Shown in pieces: positions 10,097-39,201 of a DNA stretch of 64,000 bases. This DNA is from Escherichia coli O157:H7 (GTDB taxonomy: Bacteria > Pseudomonadota > Gammaproteobacteria > Enterobacterales > Enterobacteriaceae): the NCBI RefSeq assembly GCF_013167455.1, contig NZ_CP038328.1. One strand, 5' to 3'. Each line of letters opens with the position of its first letter. Within the stretch, counting starts at the first letter, position 1. Made by a program: the position numbers and the translations under genes. A model generated the notes under the pieces. The model was not told the origin of the DNA. It worked only from the letters and a program-made list of their open reading frames with translations, and did no database searches.

Positions 10097-11308
10097 ATGA
10101 ATACCATTTTTTCCGCTCGTATCATGAAGCGCCTGGCGCTCACCACGGCTCTTTGCACAGCCTTTATCTCTGCTGCACATGCCGATGACCTGAATATCAA
10201 AACTATGATCCCGGGTGTACCGCAGATCGATGCGGAGTCCTACATCCTGATTGACTATAACTCCGGCAAAGTGCTCGCCGAACAGAACGCAGATGTCCGC
10301 CGCGATCCTGCCAGCCTGACCAAAATGATGACCAGTTACGTTATCGGCCAGGCAATGAAAGCCGGTAAATTTAAAGAAACTGATTTAGTCACTATTGGCA
10401 ACGACGCATGGGCCACCGGTAACCCGGTGTTTAAAGGTTCTTCGCTGATGTTCCTCAAACCGGGCATGCAGGTTCCGGTTTCTCAGCTGATCCGCGGTAT
10501 AAACCTGCAATCGGGTAACGATGCTTGTGTCGCCATGGCCGATTTTGCCGCTGGTAGCCAGGACGCTTTTGTTGGCTTGATGAACAGCTACGTTAACGCC
10601 CTGGGCCTGAAAAATACCCACTTCCAGACGGTACATGGTCTGGATGCTGATGGTCAGTACAGCTCCGCGCGCGATATGGCGCTGATCGGCCAGGCGTTGA
10701 TCCGTGACGTACCGAATGAATACTCGATCTATAAAGAAAAAGAATTTACGTTTAACGGTATTCGCCAGCTGAACCGTAACGGCCTGTTATGGGATAACAG
10801 CCTGAATGTCGACGGCATCAAAACCGGACACACTGACAAAGCAGGTTACAACCTTGTTGCTTCTGCGACTGAAGGCCAGATGCGCTTGATTTCTGCGGTG
10901 ATGGGCGGACGTACTTTTAAAGGCCGTGAAGCCGAAAGTAAAAAACTGCTAACCTGGGGCTTCCGTTTCTTCGAAACCGTTAACCCACTGAAAGTAGGTA
11001 AAGAGTTCGCCTCTGAACCGGTTTGGTTTGGTGATTCTGATCGCGCTTCGTTAGGGGTTGATAAAGACGTGTACCTGACCATTCCGCGTGGTCGCATGAA
11101 AGATCTGAAAGCCAGCTATGTGCTGAACAGCAGTGAATTGCATGCGCCGCTGCAAAAGAATCAGGTCGTCGGAACTATCAACTTCCAGCTTGATGGCAAA
11201 ACGATCGAACAACGCCCGCTGGTTGTGTTGCAAGAAATCCCGGAAGGTAACTTCTTCGGCAAAATCATTGATTACATTAAATTAATGTTCCATCACTGGT
11301 TTGGTTAA
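10097..11308 (+). CDS. dacA: D-alanyl-D-alanine carboxypeptidase PBP5
   Basis: 403 aa ORF; signal peptide; SxxK (SLTK), SGN and KTG motifs visible. Confidence 0.97.
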
Positions 11309-11417
11309 AAATTGAACACTTGAAAGTGTAATTTCCGTCCCCATATACTAAGCATCAGTAAAAAACTCCCGCCTTCTGGCGGGAGTTGCTATTTAATTAC
11401 GTTACGCCGGAGCTGAC

Positions 11418-11681
11418 ATGAAAACCAAACTTAACGAACTGCTTGAATTCCCTACTCCTTTTACTTACAAAGTTATGGGGCAGGCGTTACCTGAGCTGGT
11501 TGATCAGGTGGTTGAAGTGGTACAGCGCCATGCGCCAGGTGACTACACCCCAACGGTAAAACCAAGCAGCAAAGGCAACTACCACTCGGTATCTATCACT
11601 ATCAACGCCACTCATATCGAGCAGGTTGAAACACTGTATGAAGAACTGGGCAAAATCGATATTGTCCGCATGGTTCTGTAA
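11418..11681 (+). CDS. ybeD: UPF0250 protein YbeD
   Basis: 87 aa ORF between dacA and lipB, recognised as YbeD. Confidence 0.9.
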
Positions 11682-11781
11682 CTCGCTTCTCCGTTACCCG
11701 GCCCCTGGTCGGGTAACTCCCCTCTCCTCGCTGTGATATACTTTTCTCCCACTTTTACTCATTCTCCACGGAGATGCCGTT

Positions 11782-12423
11782 TTGTATCAGGATAAAATTC
11801 TTGTCCGCCAGCTCGGTCTTCAGCCTTACGAGCCAATCTCCCAGGCTATGCATGAATTCACCGATACCCGCGATGATAGTACCCTTGATGAAATCTGGCT
11901 GGTCGAGCACTATCCGGTATTCACCCAAGGGCAGGCAGGAAAGGCGGAGCACATTTTAATGCCCGGTGATATTCCGGTGATTCAGAGCGATCGCGGTGGG
12001 CAGGTGACTTATCACGGGCCGGGGCAACAGGTGATGTATGTATTGCTTAACCTGAAACGCCGTAAACTCGGTGTGCGTGAACTGGTGACCTTGCTTGAGC
12101 AAACAGTGGTGAATACCCTGGCTGAACTGGGTATAGAAGCGCATCCTCGGGCTGACGCGCCAGGTGTCTATGTTGGGGAAAAGAAAATTTGCTCACTGGG
12201 TTTACGTATTCGACGCGGTTGTTCATTCCACGGTCTGGCATTAAACGTCAATATGGATCTTTCACCATTTTTACGTATTAATCCTTGTGGGTATGCCGGA
12301 ATGGAAATGGCTAAAATATCACAATGGAAACCCGAAGCGACGACTAATAATATTGCACCACGTTTACTGGAAAATATTTTAGCGCTACTAAACAATCCTG
12401 ACTTCGAATATATTACCGCTTAA
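11782..12423 (+). CDS. lipB: octanoyl-[ACP]:protein N-octanoyltransferase
   Basis: 213 aa ORF with TTG start; recognised as LipB. Confidence 0.93.
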
Positions 12424-12682
12424 TTTCATACCTCAATGGCCCAATTTACACTGGGTCATTACTCATAACACCTGCTAATGCTTTACATCTCCTTCGCGTT
12501 TGTATATTTTCTTTATCACTTGCAGAAATGCGATGCTACGCCTTGCTCCGTAACTCACCCCATTGATTAACTTATTGAAATAGTTGATTATGATGAGCAA
12601 AAGCGTTCCGTTCCAATTAGACATAAGATTATTGTAATTTTTTTAAATATTATTTTTCCATGAATAAAATTGGAGTAAGTGC

Positions 12683-13636
12683 GTGGATAGTAATAATCAA
12701 ATTGAATCCTGTTTAAGCAGAAAATCGTCAGAAGGTAAACCACAAATATTTACAACCTTACGAAATATTGATCTTAATCTTCTGACTATTTTTGAAGCTG
12801 TATATGTACATAAAGGGATCGTTAATGCAGCGAAAGTGCTTAATCTGACCCCCTCGGCAATCAGTCAGTCTATTCAGAAACTGCGCGTTATATTCCCTGA
12901 CCCATTGTTTATTCGCAAAGGCCAGGGTGTCACTCCTACCGCATTTGCGATGCATCTACATGAGTATATCAGTCAGGGCCTTGAGTCCATTCTTGGCGCG
13001 CTGGATATCGAAGGAAGCTATGATAAGCAACGAACGATAACTATTGCGACCACCCCCTCGGTCGGAGCTCTGGTCCTTCCTGTCATTTATCGGGCGATTA
13101 AAACTCACTATCCGCAGCTTTTACTGCGCAACCCGCCCATCAGCGACGCGGAAAACCAACTCAGTCAGTTTCAAACCGATCTCATCATAGATAACATGTT
13201 TTGCACCAATCGTACGGTGCAACATCATGTTCTGTTCACCGACAATATGGTGTTAATTTGCCGCGAGGGAAATCCACTACTCTCTTTAGAAGATGACAGA
13301 GAGACTATCGACAACGCTGCACATGTACTCCTGTTACCGGAAGGACAAAATTTCAGCGGTCTGCGGCAGAGAATTCAAGAGATGTTTCCGGACCGGCAGA
13401 TCAGCTTCACCAGCTACAACATTTTGACAATCGCTGCACTGGTTGCCAACAGTGACATGTTAGCGATTATTCCCAGCCGTTTTTATAACCTGTTTAGCCG
13501 TTGCTGGCCGCTGGAAAAACTGCCTTTTCCGTCCTTAAATGAGGAGCAAATAGATTTCTCTATCCACTACAACAAATTCAGCCTGCGTGATCCCATCCTG
13601 CACGGAGTAATAGATGTTATCCGTAATGCATTTTGA
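12683..13636 (+). CDS. ybeF: LysR-family transcriptional regulator
   Basis: 317 aa ORF, GTG start; N-terminal LysR HTH (LNLLTIFEAVYVHKGIVNAAKVLNLTPSAISQSIQKLR); gene and flanks visibly AT-rich. Confidence 0.85.
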   Translation: MDSNNQIESCLSRKSSEGKPQIFTTLRNIDLNLLTIFEAVYVHKGIVNAAKVLNLTPSAISQSIQKLRVIFPDPLFIRKGQGVTPTAFAMHLHEYISQGLESILGALDIEGSYDKQRTITIATTPSVGALVLPVIYRAIKTHYPQLLLRNPPISDAENQLSQFQTDLIIDNMFCTNRTVQHHVLFTDNMVLICREGNPLLSLEDDRETIDNAAHVLLLPEGQNFSGLRQRIQEMFPDRQISFTSYNILTIAALVANSDMLAIIPSRFYNLFSRCWPLEKLPFPSLNEEQIDFSIHYNKFSLRDPILHGVIDVIRNAF

Positions 13637-13844
13637 AAAAGTATTGTTACAGCCAGATCACAGCGCAGAACGATAAAATGGCACAATCCAACAACAATTT
13701 TACATTTTCGCGACCGCTTTGGCTGCTTTCAGGTCCGTTTCAATGATATACTGCCAGTCGTTAATTCAAAAATAGTTGATAATTACAACAATCTATTGAA
13801 TTGAAACGCTTTCCTTCGTAATTCGCAACTGGAACACGCACGCT

Positions 13845-14810
13845 ATGAGTAAACCCATTGTGATGGAACGCGGTGTTAAATACCGCGATGCCGATAAGAT
13901 GGCCCTTATCCCGGTTAAAAACGTGGCAACAGAGCGCGAAGCCCTGCTGCGCAAGCCGGAATGGATGAAAATCAAGCTTCCAGCGGACTCTACACGTATC
14001 CAGGGCATCAAAGCCGCAATGCGCAAAAATGGCCTGCATTCTGTCTGCGAGGAAGCCTCCTGCCCTAACCTGGCGGAATGCTTCAACCACGGCACAGCAA
14101 CGTTTATGATCCTGGGCGCTATTTGTACCCGCCGTTGTCCGTTCTGTGACGTTGCCCACGGTCGCCCGGTAGCTCCTGATGCCAATGAGCCAGTGAAACT
14201 GGCGCAGACCATTGCCGATATGGCGCTGCGTTATGTGGTTATCACCTCCGTTGACCGTGATGACCTGCGCGATGGCGGTGCCCAACACTTTGCGGATTGT
14301 ATTACTGCCATTCGGGAAAAAAGCCCGCAAATCAAAATTGAAACTCTGGTGCCGGATTTCCGCGGTCGTATGGATCGTGCTCTGGATATTCTGACTGCAA
14401 CGCCCCCAGATGTGTTCAACCATAACCTGGAAAACGTACCGCGTATTTACCGGCAGGTACGGCCTGGCGCAGATTACAACTGGTCGCTGAAGCTGCTGGA
14501 ACGCTTTAAAGAAGCGCATCCGGAAATCCCGACCAAGTCTGGTCTGATGGTGGGTCTGGGTGAAACCAATGAAGAAATTATTGAGGTAATGCGCGACCTG
14601 CGCCGTCATGGTGTGACGATGTTAACGCTGGGGCAATATTTGCAGCCAAGCCGCCATCACCTGCCGGTTCAACGTTACGTTAGCCCGGATGAGTTCGACG
14701 AAATGAAAGCCGAAGCGCTGGCGATGGGCTTTACCCATGCTGCATGCGGTCCGTTTGTCCGCTCTTCTTACCACGCCGATTTGCAGGCGAAAGGGATGGA
14801 AGTTAAGTAA
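13845..14810 (+). CDS. lipA: lipoyl synthase (radical SAM)
   Basis: 321 aa ORF; both Cys clusters visible ([12 protein letters not shown] and CTRRCPFC). Confidence 0.97.
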
Positions 14811-14840
14811 TCCTGTAATAATTACTTACATCTGTCTGAT

Positions 14841-14870
14841 AAAAAACCCGCTTTTTGAAGCGGGTTTTTT
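14841..14870. terminator. bidirectional rho-independent terminator between convergent lipA and tatE
   Basis: aaaaaacccgctttttgaagcgggtttttt: GC stem flanked by A-run and T-run, so it can terminate either strand. Confidence 0.7.
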
Positions 14871-14910
14871 GTATCGAACAAGATATTGAGGGAGCGTCCT
14901 GCTCGCCACG

Positions 14911-15114
14911 TCACTCTTTATGAGAGAGCTTTTCAGCCTGAAGATCAACGTCTGCGCCTTTTTTCGCCGCAGCATCGTCATCATTCATCGCCTTCTTGAA
15001 CCCTTTAATGGCCGCTCCAAGGTCTCCGCCCAGCGTACGTAACTTCTTAGTCCCAAACAGCAGAACGACCAGCGCCGCAACTACCAGCAGTTTGGTAATA
15101 CTAATCTCACCCAT
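14911..15114 (-). CDS. tatE: twin-arginine translocase subunit TatE
   Basis: 67 aa ORF; TatA/E-type N-terminal TM helix followed by amphipathic helix. Confidence 0.93.
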
Positions 15115-15242
15115 AGATACCTTCTTGACATATAACCGGCAACAGAACGCGCCTTAAAAACCAAAGAATATTAACGGTCATTCGACGCGCGCACACAATA
15201 GCAATCTGTAACAAGGTGAATCAAGCGCCGAGTAAAAAAACA

Positions 15243-16037
15243 TCATAATAATTGCGGCGGCGCAAAGCGACGGTTGTTTAAGACGGGCAGTTGCGCGCGC
15301 ACCTGACGCACACGTTCGGGCGTCACTTCCGCCATAATGAGTGCAGGCATTTCTGACGCTGCCGCAATGGTGACGCCAAAGGGATCTATAATCCGGCTTT
15401 GCCCGATATTTTTGTTCCCGCACTCCCCCGCCGCCACCATATAACAGGTGGTATCCAGCGCACGAGCGGCAAGCAACGTTGACCAGTGGTGCTCTTTGAG
15501 CGGCCCGCGAACCCAGGCGGCAGGAAGTACCAGGATTTCAGCTCCCTGTAATGCCTGTGCCAGCGCCAGCTCTGGAAAGCGTAAGTCATAACAGGTCATC
15601 AGACCGACCTTCATCCCCTCCACCTCGAGTAACGGAGCAATTTCATTACCAGCATCAACACGGCGTGATTCCTGAATGGCAAATGCATCATAGAGATGCA
15701 ATTTGGCATAACGGGCGACGATGTTTCCTGCCTGTAGCGCCACCAGCATATTCCATGCGCGCCCCGGCGTTGAAGGAACATGAATCGTCAGAATTGTCGT
15801 CATCATGTTACGTTTACTTTCTCGCCGTAAACGTCCGAGGAATTCGCCTTCCAGCAGCTGTGCTGATTTAACCGATAGATCTGCATCATGATCATCGCGC
15901 GCCAGCAATGCTTCCGGCAGGACAAACAGCGATACGTCGTTTTCCGCCGCCTGCGCCATCAACGAGGCACAAATCTCAGCGTTCTTTTCCCACACAGATG
16001 TAACAGCAAACTGTCCTGCAGCAACCAGCATTGCCAC
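15243..16037 (-). CDS. ybeM: C-N hydrolase (nitrilase-superfamily) protein; uninterrupted ORF here
   Basis: 264 aa continuous ORF with candidate catalytic residues in nitrilase-like context (LFVLPE Glu, AKLHLYD Lys, [11 protein letters not shown] Cys); I recall reference annotations treating ybeM as a pseudogene but cannot verify that. Confidence 0.75.
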
Positions 16038-16770: not shown

Positions 16771-16944
16771 CAAAATTACCTTTACATGAAAAATAGACAC
16801 AAATGCTGTGTCGGTTACCAGTACACCAATTGTGGTACGCTTTGTCCAGTGCAACTTTACTAAAAAGTGATAAAAATCGCGTTATTTTTGATGTTGCTTA
16901 TTTTAGTTATTGATTTTAAAGAAGTTACTAAAACTTCATTTGTC

Positions 16945-17505
16945 TCAAAACTGAAAGCGCATCCAGGCAAAGTACACATTGCCATTGTTGTAGGTACCCG
17001 GAATGTAGGTCATCTGAAAAGTAACTGGGCCATAACCCACGGAGGCCAATGGCAGTAGAACCGGGAGAGGGATGTAATTCCAGTTATCGCGTGCCGTTAC
17101 GCCAGCGGTGAATCCCAGACCTAAATGAAAATTTTCATCCGCCAGCGGTCGCCAGGTACTTTCCCATCCGTATCCGGCAATCGGTTCCCATTTGTTCCAC
17201 GAGTCCTTAAATGCCATGGCATACAGGCCATGCCAGTTTCCTTTTTCATCCCAACGCGACAGGCCAAAACCGCCACCCCACGGTCGCTCGTTATAGCGAT
17301 CGGTTTTTTCTTTGTCGTAAGCGAAACGTGCATGCCAGGTGATGGCAGGAATATATAAATCATAATGTTCAGGCTGTTGCCAGGTTTGTACAATATTTTC
17401 TCTAAACGTTGTCATCCACTCATCTGCGTTAGCAAAAACTTTACCAACGCTGATTAACTGAATAAAAACAAAGGAAAAGATAGCGACATATTTACTCACG
17501 TTCAT
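16945..17505 (-). CDS. pagP: lipid A palmitoyltransferase PagP (outer membrane)
   Basis: 186 aa from internal ATG ([14 protein letters not shown]...); signal peptide; C-terminal aromatic residue typical of OM beta-barrels. Confidence 0.93.
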
Positions 17506-17990
17506 TTGTGACCATAAAACATTTATCAAAAATCTACTACTAGCATAGCAAAGCTACAATTAACATAACCTTAACAGCCCCAACATAAAGAATAATCTGA
17601 ATAGCTGCTCTATTTATTTCCGCTTGTTCAAGTTAAATATTTCCGCGCATCGATTTAAAATGACACATCGTTTTCTGCGATGGGAATAGTCATAAAAGAA
17701 AAAGCTAGTTGTTTCTGACAACAAAATGCAACCAAGAAAAAATGACTTATTTTTTAATAAGATACCAAAAATCATCTTAACAGGGAATATATTATATATC
17801 GTCAACCCACGCCCATTGCAGATTATTTTTTGAGCACACAACCGCAGCTAACACCATTGCAATTAACAAATTTGCATCAATCCTCCATCAATTTACACAC
17901 ATTATTATGTGATAATTGCCAACCGCTAAATATGCGTTTTGTTATCTACGTATAAAAACAGCAACTTCAATGTCTTAATGGCAGTTTTTC

Positions 17991-18004
17991 TTGATTTTAA
18001 TCAG
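17991..18004. promoter_or_regulatory. putative FNR-binding site upstream of dcuC
   Basis: TTGATtttaATCAG matches FNR consensus TTGAT-N4-ATCAA at 9/10 positions; 90 nt upstream of the dcuC ATG; dcuC is anaerobically induced by established knowledge. Confidence 0.5.
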
Positions 18005-18093
18005 CATTCATCGCCAATTTATTGGGCATATTTTTTCCTTAAGCTTTAGGAATTTTTTATTATTTACTTTGGGGCCTGGAGACAGGAAAAATT

Positions 18094-21827: not shown

Positions 21828-22206
21828 TGTTTTCCTTGCGGGTTGTCCCGAGCCTCTTTGACGGATGTAATTAAAATGTTGAATCAAAATACATAGATAT
21901 TAATTATGATCGTGGCAAATTTTATTCATTAAATCAATTAAATCACTTAAACCTGCGAGTCATTTCGTAATTATATTAATTAAAAAACTTAAAACCATTA
22001 AATAAATAAAAAACCACTAACTCTATGTGAAATAAATCAAAATTTCACGCCGAAATACTCCTTAGGATGTATAGCGAAAGGAGAAAAAGATATACCTCGA
22101 TCACCCCCCTTTCTCCCAAGTGAAAATAAAAGGTTATCAGTTTGCAACATTGAACAACATTCGTTGCAAATCGATAACAACATGCACCTTCAGGATACTA
22201 TTTATT
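21828..22206. promoter_or_regulatory. divergent dpiB / citC control region
   Basis: 379-bp very AT-rich intergenic region between divergent dpiBA and citCDEFXG-citT; individual binding sites not resolved by eye. Confidence 0.5.
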
Positions 22207-36120: not shown

Positions 36121-36329
36121 AAGGTAATTCATGGATGGTTGAACTATATCCCTGCTTTTCAACCATCCTAAAAAAGCATGAATTGCTCGCTCTGCCCTAA
36201 GTGGCTGTGCTATTTTAGAAAAACTTAATCCTGAGTTAAGCAAAAAAAACATAATCAATAAAAATATATACGCAAAAAACATTGATTAAGTGAATATATC
36301 ATGGAAGAAAAATATAACCGGAGTAGTGT

Positions 36330-37232
36330 ATGACCAATCTCTACGACTTGAAAAAGTTCGACTTAAATCTTCTTGTCATATTTGAGTGTATTTACCAGCA
36401 TTTAAGCATTAGCAAAGCTGCTGAATCACTATATATCACCCCATCAGCCGTGAGCCAGTCGTTACAACGCTTACGTGCGCAATTTAATGACCCTTTATTC
36501 ATTCGCTCAGGAAAAGGTATCGCGCCGACGACAACAGGGTTAAATCTGCATCACCATCTTGAGAAAAATCTCAGAGGCCTTGAACAAACAATTAATATAG
36601 TCAATAAGTCCGAACTAAAGAAAAACTTTATTATTCACGGCCCTCAGCTCATTTCTTGCTCTAATAATAGTATGCTGATCCGCTGCCTACGGCAAGATTC
36701 CTCTGTCGAGATTGAGTGCCATGATATCCTCATGTCAGCAGAGAATGCTGAAGAACTGTTGGTTCACCGCAAAGCCGATCTGGTGATCACCCAAATGCCA
36801 GTGATCAGCCGTTCCGTCATTTGCATGCCATTGCATACGATTCGCAATACTCTAATTTGTAGTAATAGGCATCCACGAATTACTGACAATAGCACTTATG
36901 AACAAATTATGGCAGAAGAGTTCACCCAATTAATATCTAAATCAGCAGGGGTTGATGATATTCAAATGGAAATAGACGAGAGATTTATGAATCGCAAAAT
37001 TTCATTTCGTGGTTCCTCTTTGCTGACAATCATTAATAGCATTGCAGTTACAGATTTACTGGGAATAGTCCCCTATGAACTTTATAACTCCCACCGTGAC
37101 TTTCTTAATTTAAAAGAGATAAAACTAGAACATCCGTTACCTTCAATAAAGCTTTACATTTCCTATAATAAATCTTCTTTAAACAATCTGGTGTTCTCAC
37201 GATTTATTGACCGTCTAAATGAGTGTTTTTGA
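36330..37232 (+). CDS. ybdO: LysR-family transcriptional regulator
   Basis: 300 aa ORF; LysR HTH (LNLLVIFECIYQHLSISKAAESLYITPSAVSQSLQRLR); strongly AT-rich; paralogous to ybeF in this window. Confidence 0.85.
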   Translation: MTNLYDLKKFDLNLLVIFECIYQHLSISKAAESLYITPSAVSQSLQRLRAQFNDPLFIRSGKGIAPTTTGLNLHHHLEKNLRGLEQTINIVNKSELKKNFIIHGPQLISCSNNSMLIRCLRQDSSVEIECHDILMSAENAEELLVHRKADLVITQMPVISRSVICMPLHTIRNTLICSNRHPRITDNSTYEQIMAEEFTQLISKSAGVDDIQMEIDERFMNRKISFRGSSLLTIINSIAVTDLLGIVPYELYNSHRDFLNLKEIKLEHPLPSIKLYISYNKSSLNNLVFSRFIDRLNECF

Positions 37233-37378
37233 TATATAACCTCAGACAGCTACTATAACTTTCACCTATTTATTCACAGCGCGAATGAAAAATAAAACAC
37301 TCTGCTTTTCAGTGTTTACTTTATAATTAACAGTCTTATCTCACTGATCACCCTGTAACGTTCAGAGAGCGTCTTCAG

Positions 37379-38599
37379 ATGTCTATTTATAAAATTCCTC
37401 TTCCGCTCAATATTCTGGAAGCTGCACGAGAGCGTATTACCTGGACACTCAACACCCTACCCCGCGTTTGTGTCTCATTTTCTGGCGGCAAAGACTCTGG
37501 TTTAATGCTGCATCTGACAGCCGAACTCGCCCGACAAATGGGCAAAAAAATCTGCGTTTTGTTTATCGACTGGGAGGCGCAATTCTCTTGCACCATTAAC
37601 TATGTTCAGTCCCTGCGCGAGTTGTACACCGATGTCATCGAAGAGTTTTACTGGGTTGCGCTCCCGCTTACGACGCAAAATTCCCTTTCACAATACCAAC
37701 CCGAATGGCAGTGCTGGGAACCTGATGTCGAATGGGTACGTCAGCCCCCGCAAGATGCGATAACCGATCCTGACTTTTTCTGCTTTTACCAGCCAGGCAT
37801 GACCTTCGAACAATTTGTACGTGAGTTTGCCGAATGGTTTTCACAAAAACGTCCGGCGGCGATGATGATCGGCATCCGTGCGGATGAGTCCTACAACCGT
37901 TTTGTCGCCATCGCCAGTTTAAATAAACAACGTTTTGCCGACGATAAACCCTGGACTACGGCCGCACCAGGCGGTCATAGCTGGTACATTTACCCCATTT
38001 ACGACTGGAAAGTGGCTGATATCTGGACCTGGTATGCAAATCATCAAAGTCTCTGCAACCCACTGTATAACCTAATGTATCAGGCAGGCGTTCCTCTGCG
38101 TCATATGCGAATTTGCGAACCTTTTGGCCCGGAGCAACGACAAGGATTATGGCTCTATCACGTTATCGAACCGGATCGCTGGGCTGCTATGTGCGCACGA
38201 GTCAGCGGGGTAAAAAGTGGCGGCATTTACGCCGGACATGATAATCATTTCTATGGGCATCGGAAAATCCTCAAGCCAGAACATTTAGACTGGCAAGAAT
38301 ATGCATTATTGCTGCTCAATAGCATGCCGGAAAAAACAGCTGAGCATTACCGCAATAAAATCGCCATTTATTTGCACTGGTATCAGAAAAAAGGCATCGA
38401 GGTTCCACAAACCCAGCAAGGGGACATTGGCGCGAAAGATATCCCCTCCTGGCGGCGGATATGCAAAGTTTTACTCAATAACGATTACTGGTGTCGGGCA
38501 TTATCATTTAGTCCTACGAAAGCGAAGAACTATCAGCGTTATAACGAACGGATAAAAGGAAAACGTCAGGAATGGGGGATACTATGCAACAACGATTAA
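37379..38599 (+). CDS. ybdN: PAPS-reductase-like PP-loop ATP pyrophosphatase family protein (IbrA-like)
   Basis: 406 aa ORF; PP-loop motif SGGKDS visible (VSFSGGKDSGLMLHL). Confidence 0.85.
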   Translation: MSIYKIPLPLNILEAARERITWTLNTLPRVCVSFSGGKDSGLMLHLTAELARQMGKKICVLFIDWEAQFSCTINYVQSLRELYTDVIEEFYWVALPLTTQNSLSQYQPEWQCWEPDVEWVRQPPQDAITDPDFFCFYQPGMTFEQFVREFAEWFSQKRPAAMMIGIRADESYNRFVAIASLNKQRFADDKPWTTAAPGGHSWYIYPIYDWKVADIWTWYANHQSLCNPLYNLMYQAGVPLRHMRICEPFGPEQRQGLWLYHVIEPDRWAAMCARVSGVKSGGIYAGHDNHFYGHRKILKPEHLDWQEYALLLLNSMPEKTAEHYRNKIAIYLHWYQKKGIEVPQTQQGDIGAKDIPSWRRICKVLLNNDYWCRALSFSPTKAKNYQRYNERIKGKRQEWGILCNND

Positions 38600-39201
38600 C
38601 GCAGGATTTAACGCAATTTCTCGCCAGCTTGCCGGAAGATGATCGCATCAACGCGATTAATGAAATCCGCATGGCGATCCATCAGGTTAGCCCCTTTCGT
38701 GAAGAGCCAGTGGATTGCGTTCTGTGGGTTAAAAACAGCCAACTTATGCCTAATGATTACAACCCAAACAACGTGGCACCACCCGAAAAAAAACTGCTGA
38801 AAAAATCCATTGAAATAGATGGTTTTACCCAACCCATTGTGGTCACGCATACGGATAAAAATGCCCTGGAAATCGTGGATGGTTTTCACCGCCATGAAAT
38901 TGGTAAAGGCTCATCATCATTAAAATTACGCTTAAAAGGTTATTTGCCGGTGACCTGTCTGGAAGGTACGCGTAATCAACGCATCGCCGCGACTATTCGT
39001 CATAATCGCGCTCGTGGACGCCATCAAATCACCGCCATGTCGGAAATCGTCCGTGAACTCAGTCAGTTGGGATGGGACGATAATAAAATTGGCAAAGAGC
39101 TGGGAATGGACAGCGACGAAGTGCTGCGCCTGAAGCAAATTAACGGTCTGCAAGAGCTGTTTGCCGACCGTCAATATTCCCGCGCCTGGACTGTCAAATA
39201 A
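38572..39201 (+). CDS. ybdM: ParB/sulfiredoxin-like domain protein (IbrB-like)
   Basis: 209 aa ORF overlapping ybdN 3' end by 28 nt; ParB-type motif (IVDGFHRHEIGKG). Confidence 0.85.
   Translation: MGDTMQQRLTQDLTQFLASLPEDDRINAINEIRMAIHQVSPFREEPVDCVLWVKNSQLMPNDYNPNNVAPPEKKLLKKSIEIDGFTQPIVVTHTDKNALEIVDGFHRHEIGKGSSSLKLRLKGYLPVTCLEGTRNQRIAATIRHNRARGRHQITAMSEIVRELSQLGWDDNKIGKELGMDSDEVLRLKQINGLQELFADRQYSRAWTVK

Follow-up and report, generated by a model that had tools for sequence, protein, structure and literature searches.

The gene ybeF, which encodes a LysR-type regulator, lies in the Escherichia coli O157:H7 chromosome between lipB and lipA, and another LysR-type regulator gene, ybdO, starts 23,647 bp downstream of the ybeF start on the same strand. 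This arrangement raises the question whether the two genes are specific paralogs, and whether ybeF is a foreign gene that landed by chance between two lipoate synthesis genes or a long-term resident of this position. We address this question for the stretch of 64,000 nucleotides of the E. coli O157 chromosome that includes both genes (hereafter, the window). The interval 12424-13844 comprises exactly the lipB-ybeF spacer, ybeF and the ybeF-lipA spacer, and the locus as a whole is organized as follows.

11782..12423, + strand: lipB (octanoyltransferase), the upstream neighbor of ybeF, from the ORF and the RefSeq annotation
12436..12459, + strand: hairpin ATGGCCCA...TGGGTCAT, directly 3' of the lipB stop
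12482..12510, + strand: ybeF sigma-70 promoter, TTTACA-15-TATATT or TTTACA-17-TATTTT
12511..12682, + strand: ybeF leader, AT-rich, about 170 nt, with a sequence that varies among genera
about 12650-12666, + strand: degenerate remnant of the palindrome CATTCA-N5-TGAATG, near the end of the ybeF leader
12672-12675, + strand: ybeF Shine-Dalgarno sequence GGAG, at the end of the leader
12683..13636, + strand: ybeF, LysR-type regulator, GTG start, 317 aa
13637..13844, + strand: ybeF-lipA spacer
13678-13706, + strand: published lipA promoter ATGGCA-17-TACATT, inside the ybeF-lipA spacer
13744-13752, + strand: conserved extended -10 element TGaTATACT, in the ybeF-lipA spacer
13763-13769 / 13796-13802, + strand: inverted repeat AATTCAA / TTGAATT in the nearly invariant lipA leader
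13845..14810, + strand: lipA (lipoyl synthase), the downstream neighbor of ybeF

The ybeF promoter has been published as a constitutive promoter, together with an 'HNS' mark for the spacer (PMC3946193); it is a unique match in the window that was also picked up by the promoter scan, and it belongs to a block, CTTTACA..TcTATATTTTC, that is conserved across the Enterobacteriaceae. The stem of the hairpin that follows lipB differs in sequence but remains self-complementary, with compensatory changes, in an alignment of 17 genera. This hairpin lacks a T-tract and so is not a canonical intrinsic terminator; the terminator scan made no call there. A search of positions 11000-15500 against Rfam (E <= 1) gave no match in either of the two ybeF spacers. 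The same search yielded sub-threshold matches (E 0.02-0.7, all under the gathering score) at 14741-14933, around the 3' end of lipA and the lipA-tatE spacer.

By their domain organization, YbeF and YbdO are standard LysR proteins, in which a winged-helix DNA-binding domain at the N terminus is followed by a C-terminal effector-binding and oligomerization domain. The winged helix-turn-helix domain (PF00126, cut-off 26.6 bits) was detected at residues 31-89 of YbeF (54 bits) and 12-70 of YbdO (68 bits), and the substrate-binding domain (PF03466, cut-off 28 bits) at residues 116-316 (59.5 bits) and 135-298 (38.6 bits), respectively; the lengths of 317 and 300 aa correspond to the approximately 300 aa of LysR-type regulators. 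YbeF matches the YbeF equivalog model of NCBIfam (NF008554, cut-off 277 bits) over residues 1-317 of 317 with 613.5 bits, and YbdO matches the CitR equivalog model (NF047710, cut-off 400 bits) with 458.7 bits, whereas YbeF reaches only 180.8 bits on the latter and so is not CitR. The LeuO equivalog model (NF007063, cut-off 262 bits) is reached by neither protein (112 bits for YbeF and 103 bits for YbdO). For both proteins, LeuO follows as the next E. coli family; it shares with them the beginning of the HTH, DLNLL..F..V/I, and with YbeF the N-terminal extension, but differs in the recognition helix (SQPAVSNAVARLK), which is nearly identical in YbeF and YbdO, TPSA[I/V]SQS[I/L]Q[K/R]LR. By these scores, YbeF and YbdO are relatives, not orthologs, of LeuO. 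Solved structures include neither YbeF nor CitR nor any close relative; the best matches of YbeF among them, over residues 24-284 with E of about 1e-18, are of the DntR/NahR type (1uth, 1utb, 2uye and 5ae5, along with PA0477, 2esn), a generic similarity of about 70 bits.

The original prediction, made from the DNA alone, was that two related LysR genes lie about 23 kb apart in this window; the coordinates and the Pfam matches agree with it, and the two HTH peptides that it quoted are found verbatim in YbeF and YbdO. The proposal that the two are paralogs also stands: BLASTP aligns them over their full length, with 31% identity across 299 aligned residues and E of 2e-41, and the best non-self NCBIfam model of each is the family of the other (181 and 164 bits), with the LeuO and BsrA models trailing at 89-120 bits and LeuO, in particular, about 60 bits behind. 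The relationship was in fact published in 2022 ('paralogs, identity 30%'; PMC9068703). An alternative is that the similarity is generic to LysR proteins and concentrated in the HTH, as could be suggested by the low overall identity and by the 16% identity of the linker helix; the winged helix-turn-helix is 55% identical and the effector domain 27%. However, the last value compares with only 16-18% between either effector domain and that of LeuO, which counts against generic similarity, named by the prediction itself as the competing outcome. Furthermore, the family is small, with 36 cluster representatives at E <= 1e-30 among 1.84 billion proteins, and its named members are without exception from Enterobacterales; the search retrieves YbeF orthologs (at least 42% identity) first, followed by CitR-like proteins at 26-32%, and all 10 representatives scanned (one Rahnella YbeF ortholog and nine CitR-like proteins) gave higher scores with the CitR and YbeF models than with those of LeuO and BsrA. 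In a neighbor-joining tree (200 bootstraps) of 75 representatives of YbeF, YbdO, LeuO and their relatives, the clade of YbeF has a bootstrap of 0.97 whereas the deep nodes, a further point in favor of generic similarity, remain below 0.3, so the tree does not settle whether YbeF and YbdO group together apart from the LeuO-like proteins, and the case for the closest paralogs stands on scores and domain identities and not on a resolved phylogeny. Taken on that basis, the data support YbeF and YbdO as apparently each other's closest relatives in E. coli, beyond generic LysR similarity, which we consider a very unlikely account of the pair.

The second gene of the pair resides in the following locus.

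36121..36329, + strand: dsbG-ybdO spacer with the ybdO promoter, 32% GC, which holds an H-NS-dependent upstream element (PMC4720273)
36280-36296, + strand: palindrome-like site CATTGATTAAGTGAATA in the dsbG-ybdO spacer, from the motif search
36330..37232, + strand: ybdO (= citR), LysR-type regulator, 300 aa, NCBIfam NF047710 CitR
37233..39201, + strand: ybdO-ybdN spacer (35.6% GC) and the ybdN-ybdM operon
37271-37287, + strand: site TATTCACAGCGCGAATG in the ybdO-ybdN spacer, from the motif search

[quoted passage not shown] Together with the ybdO-ybdN spacer and ybdN-ybdM, ybdO forms a block of lower GC content (47-48%) in the window. In Escherichia and Citrobacter, ybdO and ybdNM are flanked by dsbG and ybdL, with the gene order repeated in C. 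freundii. Neither YbeF nor YbdO was matched in PADLOC. YbdN showed weak matches to DndC and BrxP in that search.

The base compositions of the two genes differ. Among the 58 genes of the window, ybdO, with a GC content of 38.6% and GC3 of 39.2%, is the lowest (z = -3.2), and its counterpart in C. freundii is at 38.9%. For ybeF, the GC content of 44.7% ranks fourth lowest (z = -1.8), and the GC3 of 46.5% is below that of lipA (56.5%, with GC of 53.7%) but not below that of lipB (44.9%, with GC of 47.5%); across loci, ybeF has a lower GC3 than lipB in only 36 of 78, and its GC3 follows the GC content of the host (r = 0.68). Thus, the description of both genes as much more AT-rich than their flanks is accurate for ybdO and applies to ybeF only mildly, and the high AT content of silenced genes is likewise clear in ybdO and weak in ybeF. 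The spacers upstream of ybeF and ybdO are at 34.4% and 32.1% GC, respectively; given that 7 of the 28 window spacers of at least 60 bp are at 34.5% or less, these values are low but not exceptional.

Could ybeF, then, be a recent, foreign islet, silenced by H-NS, that the E. coli lineage acquired through a chance insertion between lipB and lipA? Its GC content below that of both neighbors, the AT-rich upstream spacer and the H-NS site selected there by genomic SELEX are all in line with such an origin, which is nevertheless refuted by synteny, so that we give it next to no credence. The gene is found in the same place and orientation in all 80 Enterobacteriaceae loci analyzed, from about 30 genera, in the order dacA-ybeD-lipB-ybeF-lipA-tatE wherever the flank is long enough, lipB included; the locus is present, at 95-100% identity, in 5421 of 5426 E. 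coli genomes. None of the signs of recent transfer (patchiness, mobility genes, foreign GC3) is seen in ybeF: no mobility genes flank it and its GC3 has been ameliorated. The position also holds in Mangrovibacter and in Rahnella, a member of the Yersiniaceae in which the homolog at the same site is 42% identical and scores 301 bits on NF008554 (above the cut-off of 277). [quoted passage not shown] The spacer alignment shows that the lipA promoter and leader are homologous in genera with and without ybeF and are, therefore, older than ybeF. Together, these comparisons show ybeF as a clean single-gene insertion that carried its own promoter and landed just past the end of lipB, ahead of a lipA promoter that was already there. 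The insertion dates to the root of the Enterobacteriaceae or earlier, and the gene has kept its place ever since. The presence of YbeF in Rahnella and its absence in the related Rouxiella imply either an older insertion followed by several losses or one further transfer of ybeF. Horizontal acquisition, as originally proposed, thus holds in deep time and fails as a recent event, and what had been taken for an odd position for a foreign insertion turns out to be a conserved trait of the family, already noted in PMC4398509. It also has to be considered that YbeF regulates lipA and/or lipB, given that LysR proteins usually control a neighboring gene. The location between the two genes, the near invariance of both the YbeF DNA-binding domain and the adjacent lipA promoter and leader, and the ATTCA/TGAAT-type half-sites in that leader would fit such a role. 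However, the lipA promoter and leader are conserved also where ybeF is missing; the genes are co-directional rather than divergent; none of the three YbeF ChIP-exo sites falls at lipA or lipB; neither gene appears in the examined supplementary files of the ybeF-knockout study; and the literature on lipoate calls the function of YbeF unknown (PMC4398509). A lipoate regulator, accordingly, strikes us as quite improbable.

As regards the origin of the pair, a local duplication would account for the two genes lying 23 kb apart around the cit locus; the other option is two independent acquisitions. YbeF and YbdO being mutual closest relatives, and encoded on one strand with the dpiAB-cit cluster between them, a clustering with cit genes noted in PMC9068703, speaks for duplication in place. 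Yet the distributions of the two genes differ: ybeF occurs throughout the family, whereas the best 120 YbdO matches are confined to Escherichia and Citrobacter (Salmonella also has ybdO; PMC12994799), CitR-like relatives occupy unrelated contexts in other Enterobacterales (for example, locus L096), and no flanking homology is left. Local duplication is, on balance, somewhat unlikely. Within E. coli, ybdO was matched in 5356 of the 5426 genomes, and it is syntenic in Citrobacter; unlike ybeF, it retains a low GC3 and deeply divergent alleles, the high intraspecific divergence reported previously (PMC4720273) being seen here as well. The explanation that we favor, with good confidence, is that ybeF and ybdO have long resided in the chromosome, have been inherited vertically and belong to a small LeuO-like branch of the LysR family, confined to Enterobacterales, in which they are mutual closest E. 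coli relatives. The finding is real but ordinary: both genes are old chromosomal residents and not recent foreign insertions, and ybeF, in particular, is an ancient fixed insertion and no foreign islet.

The evidence on H-NS silencing, which was predicted for both genes, is of different depth in the two cases. For ybdO, the prediction is supported by a ChIP profile conserved in three strains and by reporters that are derepressed in hns mutants through elements that lie 5' of the promoter and in the 5' part of the coding sequence (Higashi et al. 2016, PMC4720273), and also by EMSA and qRT-PCR in E. coli K1 (PMC9141747). The gene also has unusually high substitution rates and serves as the worked example of horizontally transferred genes that H-NS silences, as with bgl and proU, through elements on both the upstream and the downstream side (PMC4720273). 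Unlike ybdO, ybeF, which is highly conserved across E. coli, is on record solely with the in vitro genomic-SELEX site in the lipB-ybeF spacer (PMC3946193); ybdO is listed in the supplements of Higashi et al. and the ybeF spacers are absent from them (PMC4720273). In our scan for the high-affinity H-NS motif TCGATAAATT with up to 2 mismatches, there were 65 matches in the window against 58 expected, with no cluster at ybeF or ybdO.

The orthologs of the two proteins diverge very differently along their length. The ortholog alignment and domain statistics divide YbeF into a variable tail (residues 1-19), the winged helix-turn-helix with the linker (20-121) and the effector-binding domain (122-317). 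Among YbeF orthologs, residues 20-121 are 92% identical and the effector domain 55%. Within conserved codons, the third positions have identities of 0.45 and 0.41 in these two parts, compared to 0.59 in lipA, so the synonymous sites look saturated in both. In YbdO, the corresponding ranges are 89-100% for the winged helix-turn-helix and 42-83% for the effector domain. In both proteins, then, the alignments show very strong purifying selection on the DNA-binding domain and fast divergence of the effector domain. From evolutionary rates alone, we infer that the output of YbeF and YbdO might be set mainly by the amount of protein once silencing by H-NS is relieved, more than by any conserved small-molecule ligand. 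LeuO is silenced by H-NS and is active when overexpressed. Each of the two genes is transcribed from its own AT-rich promoter region; in the published work, H-NS binds and represses ybdO in vivo and binds the ybeF spacer in vitro, so that both genes would be barely expressed in laboratory culture. Relief of silencing would then let protein amount determine the output, as for LeuO. Conceivably, YbeF, YbdO and LeuO even form an 'expression-gated' class (H-NS-silenced, with a frozen DNA-binding domain and no ligand), within which YbeF and YbdO would be partly redundant counter-silencers of shared AT-rich targets, for example the promoters of cryptic fimbrial genes and of one another, the lrhA/flagellar pathway and palindromes of the CATTCA-N5-TGAATG type; this extension we regard as doubtful. 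Under it, the effector domains would drift freely because no ligand is sensed, and the recognition helices, whose near identity may in any case give the two proteins overlapping DNA specificity, would direct them to overlapping AT-rich targets. The contrast between the frozen and the diverging domain thus offers a testable idea of why YbeF has resisted characterization: de-silencing or overexpression, rather than a ligand, may be required to reveal its targets.

The genes themselves, their paralogy, the control of ybdO by H-NS and the lipB-lipA location of ybeF are already in the literature, and two studies of the same genes (PMC9068703 and PMC8464067) cover the paralogy, the cit clustering, the regulation by CitR, the knockout effects and the ChIP-exo sites. 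Beyond these, the present analysis adds the family-wide synteny of ybeF with its outgroup state, the ameliorated GC3 of ybeF against the persistently low GC3 of ybdO, the domain-wise pattern of divergence and a tally of ybdO allele classes across 5426 genomes.

With respect to targets, CitR binds its own locus (autoregulation) and represses ybdNM (Rodionova et al. 2022, Sci Rep 12:7274, PMC9068703), it activates kpsM in E. coli K1, and knockouts of ybeF and of ybdO each decrease lrhA and increase the flagellar regulon (PMC9068703). A YbdO ChIP-exo peak at 636934-636965 of MG1655 (Gao et al. 2021, NAR 49:9696, PMC8464067) maps, via the MG1655 annotation and sequence, to positions 36983-37014 of the window, inside the ybdO coding sequence; other YbdO peaks lie at ybgD and ygiL (PMC8464067), cryptic fimbrial genes with H-NS sites in their spacers (PMC3946193). 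The three sites reported for YbeF, at moeB, yfiD and yihQ, have a signal-to-noise ratio of 1.1-4.3 (PMC8464067) and, with yihQ recurring for other factors, were set aside as targets. A candidate operator is the palindrome CATTCA-N5-TGAATG. It contains T-N11-A, the dyad pattern to which LysR-type regulators bind near their own genes, with negative autoregulation. Of about 57 loci, 44 conserve the palindrome 5' of ybeF; in E. coli only a degenerate form remains, and Klebsiella, Mangrovibacter and Rahnella have none. As a common operator of YbeF and YbdO, it was rejected, given that the strong YbdO peak is instead in the ybdO coding sequence and that the palindrome is missing in E. coli and these three genera; it is kept only as a lead from sequence comparison. 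Two copies with 2 mismatches flank ybdO, and in Enterobacter or Kosakonia, the palindrome upstream of ybeF reads TCATTCATATTGTGAATGA.

The two LysR regulator genes, ybeF and ybdO (current name citR), are located on the same strand at a distance of 23,647 bp, in agreement with the original prediction of a spacing of about 23 kb within one window, and the two HTH peptides reported there were found verbatim. In the RefSeq annotation of the matching record, the gene order is leuS ... dacA-ybeD-lipB-ybeF-lipA-tatE ... dpiBA-citCDEFXGT ... ahpFC-dsbG-citR(ybdO)-ybdN-ybdM-ybdL ... ent/fep; the window is chromosomal DNA of the E. coli O157 lineage, and its segment 11700-14900 is 100% identical to O157 strains. 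The features considered here are as follows.

12424-13844: lipB-ybeF spacer, ybeF and ybeF-lipA spacer
12683-13636, + strand: ybeF, GTG start, 317 aa
36330-37232, same strand as ybeF: ybdO (citR)

Both proteins contain both LysR domains, and BLASTP gave a full-length alignment of 299 residues, 31% of them identical (E 2e-41). When compared to the NCBIfam models, YbeF scored 613 bits with its own equivalog, 181 with CitR, 120 with BsrA, 112 with LeuO and 68 with YidZ, and YbdO scored 459 bits with CitR, 164 with YbeF, 103 with LeuO and 89 with BsrA, a lead of about 60 bits that makes the two families mutually nearest. A three-way alignment that included E. coli LeuO placed the surplus similarity between YbeF and YbdO chiefly in two parts, the effector domain and the recognition helix. 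This helix (TPSAISQSIQKLR in YbeF and TPSAVSQSLQRLR in YbdO) is different in LeuO (SQPAVSNAVARLK). The resemblance therefore goes beyond that generic to LysR proteins.

Amino acid identity by domain in the three-way alignment (wHTH, DNA-binding domain)
YbeF and YbdO: wHTH 55%, linker 16%, effector domain 27%
YbeF and LeuO: wHTH 48%, linker 19%, effector domain 16%
YbdO and LeuO: wHTH 43%, linker 10%, effector domain 18%

The proposed paralogy is thus upheld by the full-length alignment, the reciprocal NCBIfam cross-matches and an effector-domain identity above that to LeuO. Among 1.84 billion cluster representatives, an exhaustive HMMER search yielded only 36 at E <= 1e-30; YbeF orthologues, with identities of 42% or more, came first, and the next group had 26-32%. 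Ten representatives, nine of them from the 26-32% group and one a YbeF orthologue from Rahnella, were scanned against NCBIfam; all ten scored higher with the CitR and YbeF models than with LeuO or BsrA, and the named family members belonged to Enterobacterales in every case. In a neighbour-joining tree, the YbeF clade was recovered with a bootstrap of 0.97 and the deeper branching lacked resolution, so the sister relation of YbeF and YbdO rests on scores and not on a resolved phylogeny. The observation of two related LysR genes is real, and everything central to it has already been published.

YbeF is the fastest-changing protein of its block, with 50-82% identity to E. coli compared to 94-99% for LipA and 90-99% for DacA. 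The change is unevenly distributed: in a set of 49 ungapped orthologues, identity is 92% in residues 20-121, which span the wHTH and the linker helix and are almost invariant in non-Escherichia genera, 55% in the effector domain and 29% in the N-terminal tail. Synonymous sites look saturated, and third-position identity within conserved codons is low in the DNA-binding and effector parts (0.45 and 0.41, respectively, against 0.59 in lipA), so the invariance of the DNA-binding part reflects purifying selection rather than recent exchange. YbdO shares this pattern of an almost invariant DNA-binding domain and a rapidly diverging effector domain, with 89-92% identity in the wHTH and 42-46% in the effector domain between E. 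coli and Citrobacter, and 100% and 83%, respectively, between two common E. coli alleles (O157 and P0132). Presumably, the DNA target is fixed in both regulators, and the C-terminal domain would need only to fold and oligomerise. Judging from this pattern of conservation, control by expression level, as in the case of LeuO, would fit better than control by a conserved ligand.

Within E. coli, ybdO is deeply divergent (window 36200-37500): among 5426 complete genomes, 3567 had a match with at least 95% identity, 231 had one with 80-90% and 1558 one with 60-80%. A divergent strain, in which citR is frameshifted, has identity of 65-85% only from the ybdO promoter through the coding sequence and the ybdO-ybdN spacer to about nt 100 of ybdN; its flanks are 95-100% identical.

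The position of ybeF between lipB and lipA results from a very old insertion. Scanning one genome per species with the YbeF alignment detected 124 relatives. The best 80 of these 124 all come from loci with Enterobacteriaceae-type gene content, representing about 30 named genera, and every one of these loci has ybeF in the same syntenic block; wherever the flank was sufficient, the order was dacA-ybeD-lipB-ybeF-lipA-tatE-ybeM-crcB-cspE with identical strands. Mangrovibacter, too, has this order. The locus is also present in 5421 of the 5426 complete E. coli genomes, at 95-100% identity. The recent foreign insertion implied by the original prediction is not compatible with this conservation. 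Among the best 80, two metagenome-assembled genomes are labelled Proteobacteria only and one record (CACSKA010000002.1) is labelled 'Chryseobacterium sp. 18061'; the latter has the dacA-ybeD-lipB-ybeF-lipA block typical of Enterobacteriaceae and a LipA that shares 97% identity with that of E. coli, and it is probably mislabelled or contaminated.

In genera outside Enterobacteriaceae, there is no LysR gene between lipB and lipA in Rouxiella, Pectobacterium and Mixta, where the spacer is 172-227 bp, and likewise none in Yersinia pestis; Shewanella has a lipBA operon (PMC4398509). Spacer alignment showed homology of the lipA leader and promoter, the latter with an extended -10 ATGATATAnT, with and without ybeF, so ybeF was inserted, together with its own promoter region, behind lipB and in front of a lipA promoter that was already present. 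In Rahnella (Yersiniaceae; L085, 5001-5942), a 42% identical YbeF (301 bits, above the NCBIfam cut-off) lies between lipB and lipA, whereas in its relative Rouxiella, with the same downstream genes, lipB and lipA adjoin. This implies either repeated losses of an insertion older than the families or a second transfer of ybeF into the same site.

Base composition separates the two genes. Against a mean GC of 52.4% (sd 4.3) for the 58 annotated window genes, ybdO is the lowest (38.6%, GC3 39.2%, z = -3.2) and ybeF the fourth lowest (44.7%, GC3 46.5%, z = -1.8). The claim that both are much more AT-rich than their flanks thus holds for ybdO but goes too far for ybeF, whose GC3 exceeds that of lipB (GC 47.5%, GC3 44.9%; lipA, 53.7% and 56.5%). 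The lipB-ybeF and dsbG-ybdO spacers have 34.4% and 32.1% GC, and, of the 28 window spacers with a length of 60 bp or more, 7 are as AT-rich as these. Across 78 orthologous loci, ybeF has a lower total GC than lipA in 76 cases and than lipB in 73, and its GC3 tracks the host (r = 0.68), being below that of lipB in only 36; the deficit thus resides in codon positions 1 and 2, that is, in amino acid composition. The synonymous signature of foreign origin has been lost from ybeF. By contrast, ybdO GC3 is low both in E. coli and in Citrobacter freundii (GC 38.9%, GC3 40.7%; neighbours, 45-56% GC). Together with ybdO, the genes ybdN (PAPS-reductase-like and DUF3440) and ybdM (ParB-N/IbrB-like), at window 37379-39201, make up a lower-GC block (47-48%); in PADLOC, YbdN matched only DndC and BrxP, both weakly (E 2e-5 and 1e-4, respectively).

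The predicted H-NS silencing is documented for ybdO by published data. H-NS binding profiles over the gene are conserved in K-12, SE11 and SE15, transcription starts 107 nt 5' of the ATG, and promoter fusions are derepressed in hns mutants via an upstream (-250 to -176) and a downstream (+27 to +164) element (PMC4720273). In E. coli K1, H-NS binds the ybdO promoter in EMSA, hns deletion raises ybdO about 2.3-fold, and repression is relieved by acid pH (PMC9141747). For ybeF, the published evidence is the mark on the lipB-ybeF spacer as an H-NS binding site in a genomic-SELEX catalogue, where the constitutive promoter TTTACA-15-TATATT is also listed (PMC3946193); a literature search found no in-vivo H-NS or hns-mutant data for ybeF, and an H-NS consensus motif scan was uninformative. 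This promoter has a single match in the window (12482-12508) and is conserved across genera.

CitR binds its own locus, represses ybdN-ybdM, an IbrAB-like pair, and influences low-pH growth with citrate (PMC9068703); in K1, it activates kpsM (PMC9141747). ChIP-exo of YbdO gave four peaks, at ybdO, ybgD, ygiL and yjjP (PMC8464067), the strongest of which (MG1655 636934-636965, signal/noise 97) corresponds by coordinates to window 36983-37014 (ATGAATcgcaaaaTTTCAT). This places it in the last third of the ybdO coding region rather than between genes, with ybdN ~365 nt further downstream. Knockout of ybeF reduces lrhA 3.5-fold and increases the FlhDC regulon, and a drop in lrhA and a rise in the FlhDC regulon are likewise seen on citR knockout (PMC9068703); of the three YbeF ChIP-exo sites, all of them weak with a signal/noise of 1.1-4.3, one is common to other factors (PMC8464067). 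YbeF is without an established target. That it regulates lipoate genes is improbable, given that the lipA promoter and leader are older than ybeF, that ChIP-exo reports no binding to lipA or lipB (PMC8464067), and that the lipoate literature lists YbeF as of unknown function (PMC4398509).

Phylogenetic footprinting upstream of ybeF revealed four successive elements. A hairpin follows lipB; next come the conserved promoter and then a leader of ~170 nt that varies in sequence. The fourth element is a palindrome, CATTCA-N5-TGAATG, which precedes the Shine-Dalgarno sequence by about 10 nt and lies about 35-20 nt 5' of the start (L004-L082, loci from other genomes). The palindrome contains T-N11-A and has conserved arms and a variable centre; it occurs in 44 of ~57 ybeF loci, is degenerate in E. 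coli (window 12650-12666) and is absent 5' of ybeF in Klebsiella, Mangrovibacter and Rahnella. Copies with two mismatches flank ybdO, at 36280-36296 (50 nt before the ATG) and 37271-37287 (ybdO-ybdN spacer), among 9 such matches in the window against 3.8 expected, and the C. freundii ybdO-ybdN spacer also has a copy (L095, 5934-5950). The palindrome could be an autoregulatory operator common to YbeF and YbdO; since its position differs from that of the published ChIP-exo peak of YbdO and it was noticed post hoc, it is a lead only. The hairpin (12436-12459), directly 3' of the lipB stop, shows compensatory base changes across genera and, having no T-tract, is unlike a canonical intrinsic terminator.

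The lipA promoter (extended -10 TGaTATACT, 13744-13752) and ~90-nt leader (window 13735-13844) are nearly invariant across Enterobacteriaceae and recognisable in genera without ybeF; for the leader, no Rfam family and no known regulator were found, and it contains a 7-bp inverted repeat, AATTCAA/TTGAATT. Elsewhere, AT-rich patches (window 16771-18093, 21828-22206 and 54374-55722) comprise the cspE-pagP and pagP-dcuC spacers, both with 31-32% GC and the second one marked as an H-NS site (PMC3946193), as well as the dpiB-citC spacer with 31% GC and fepE (44.6% GC) with its spacer (33.5%).
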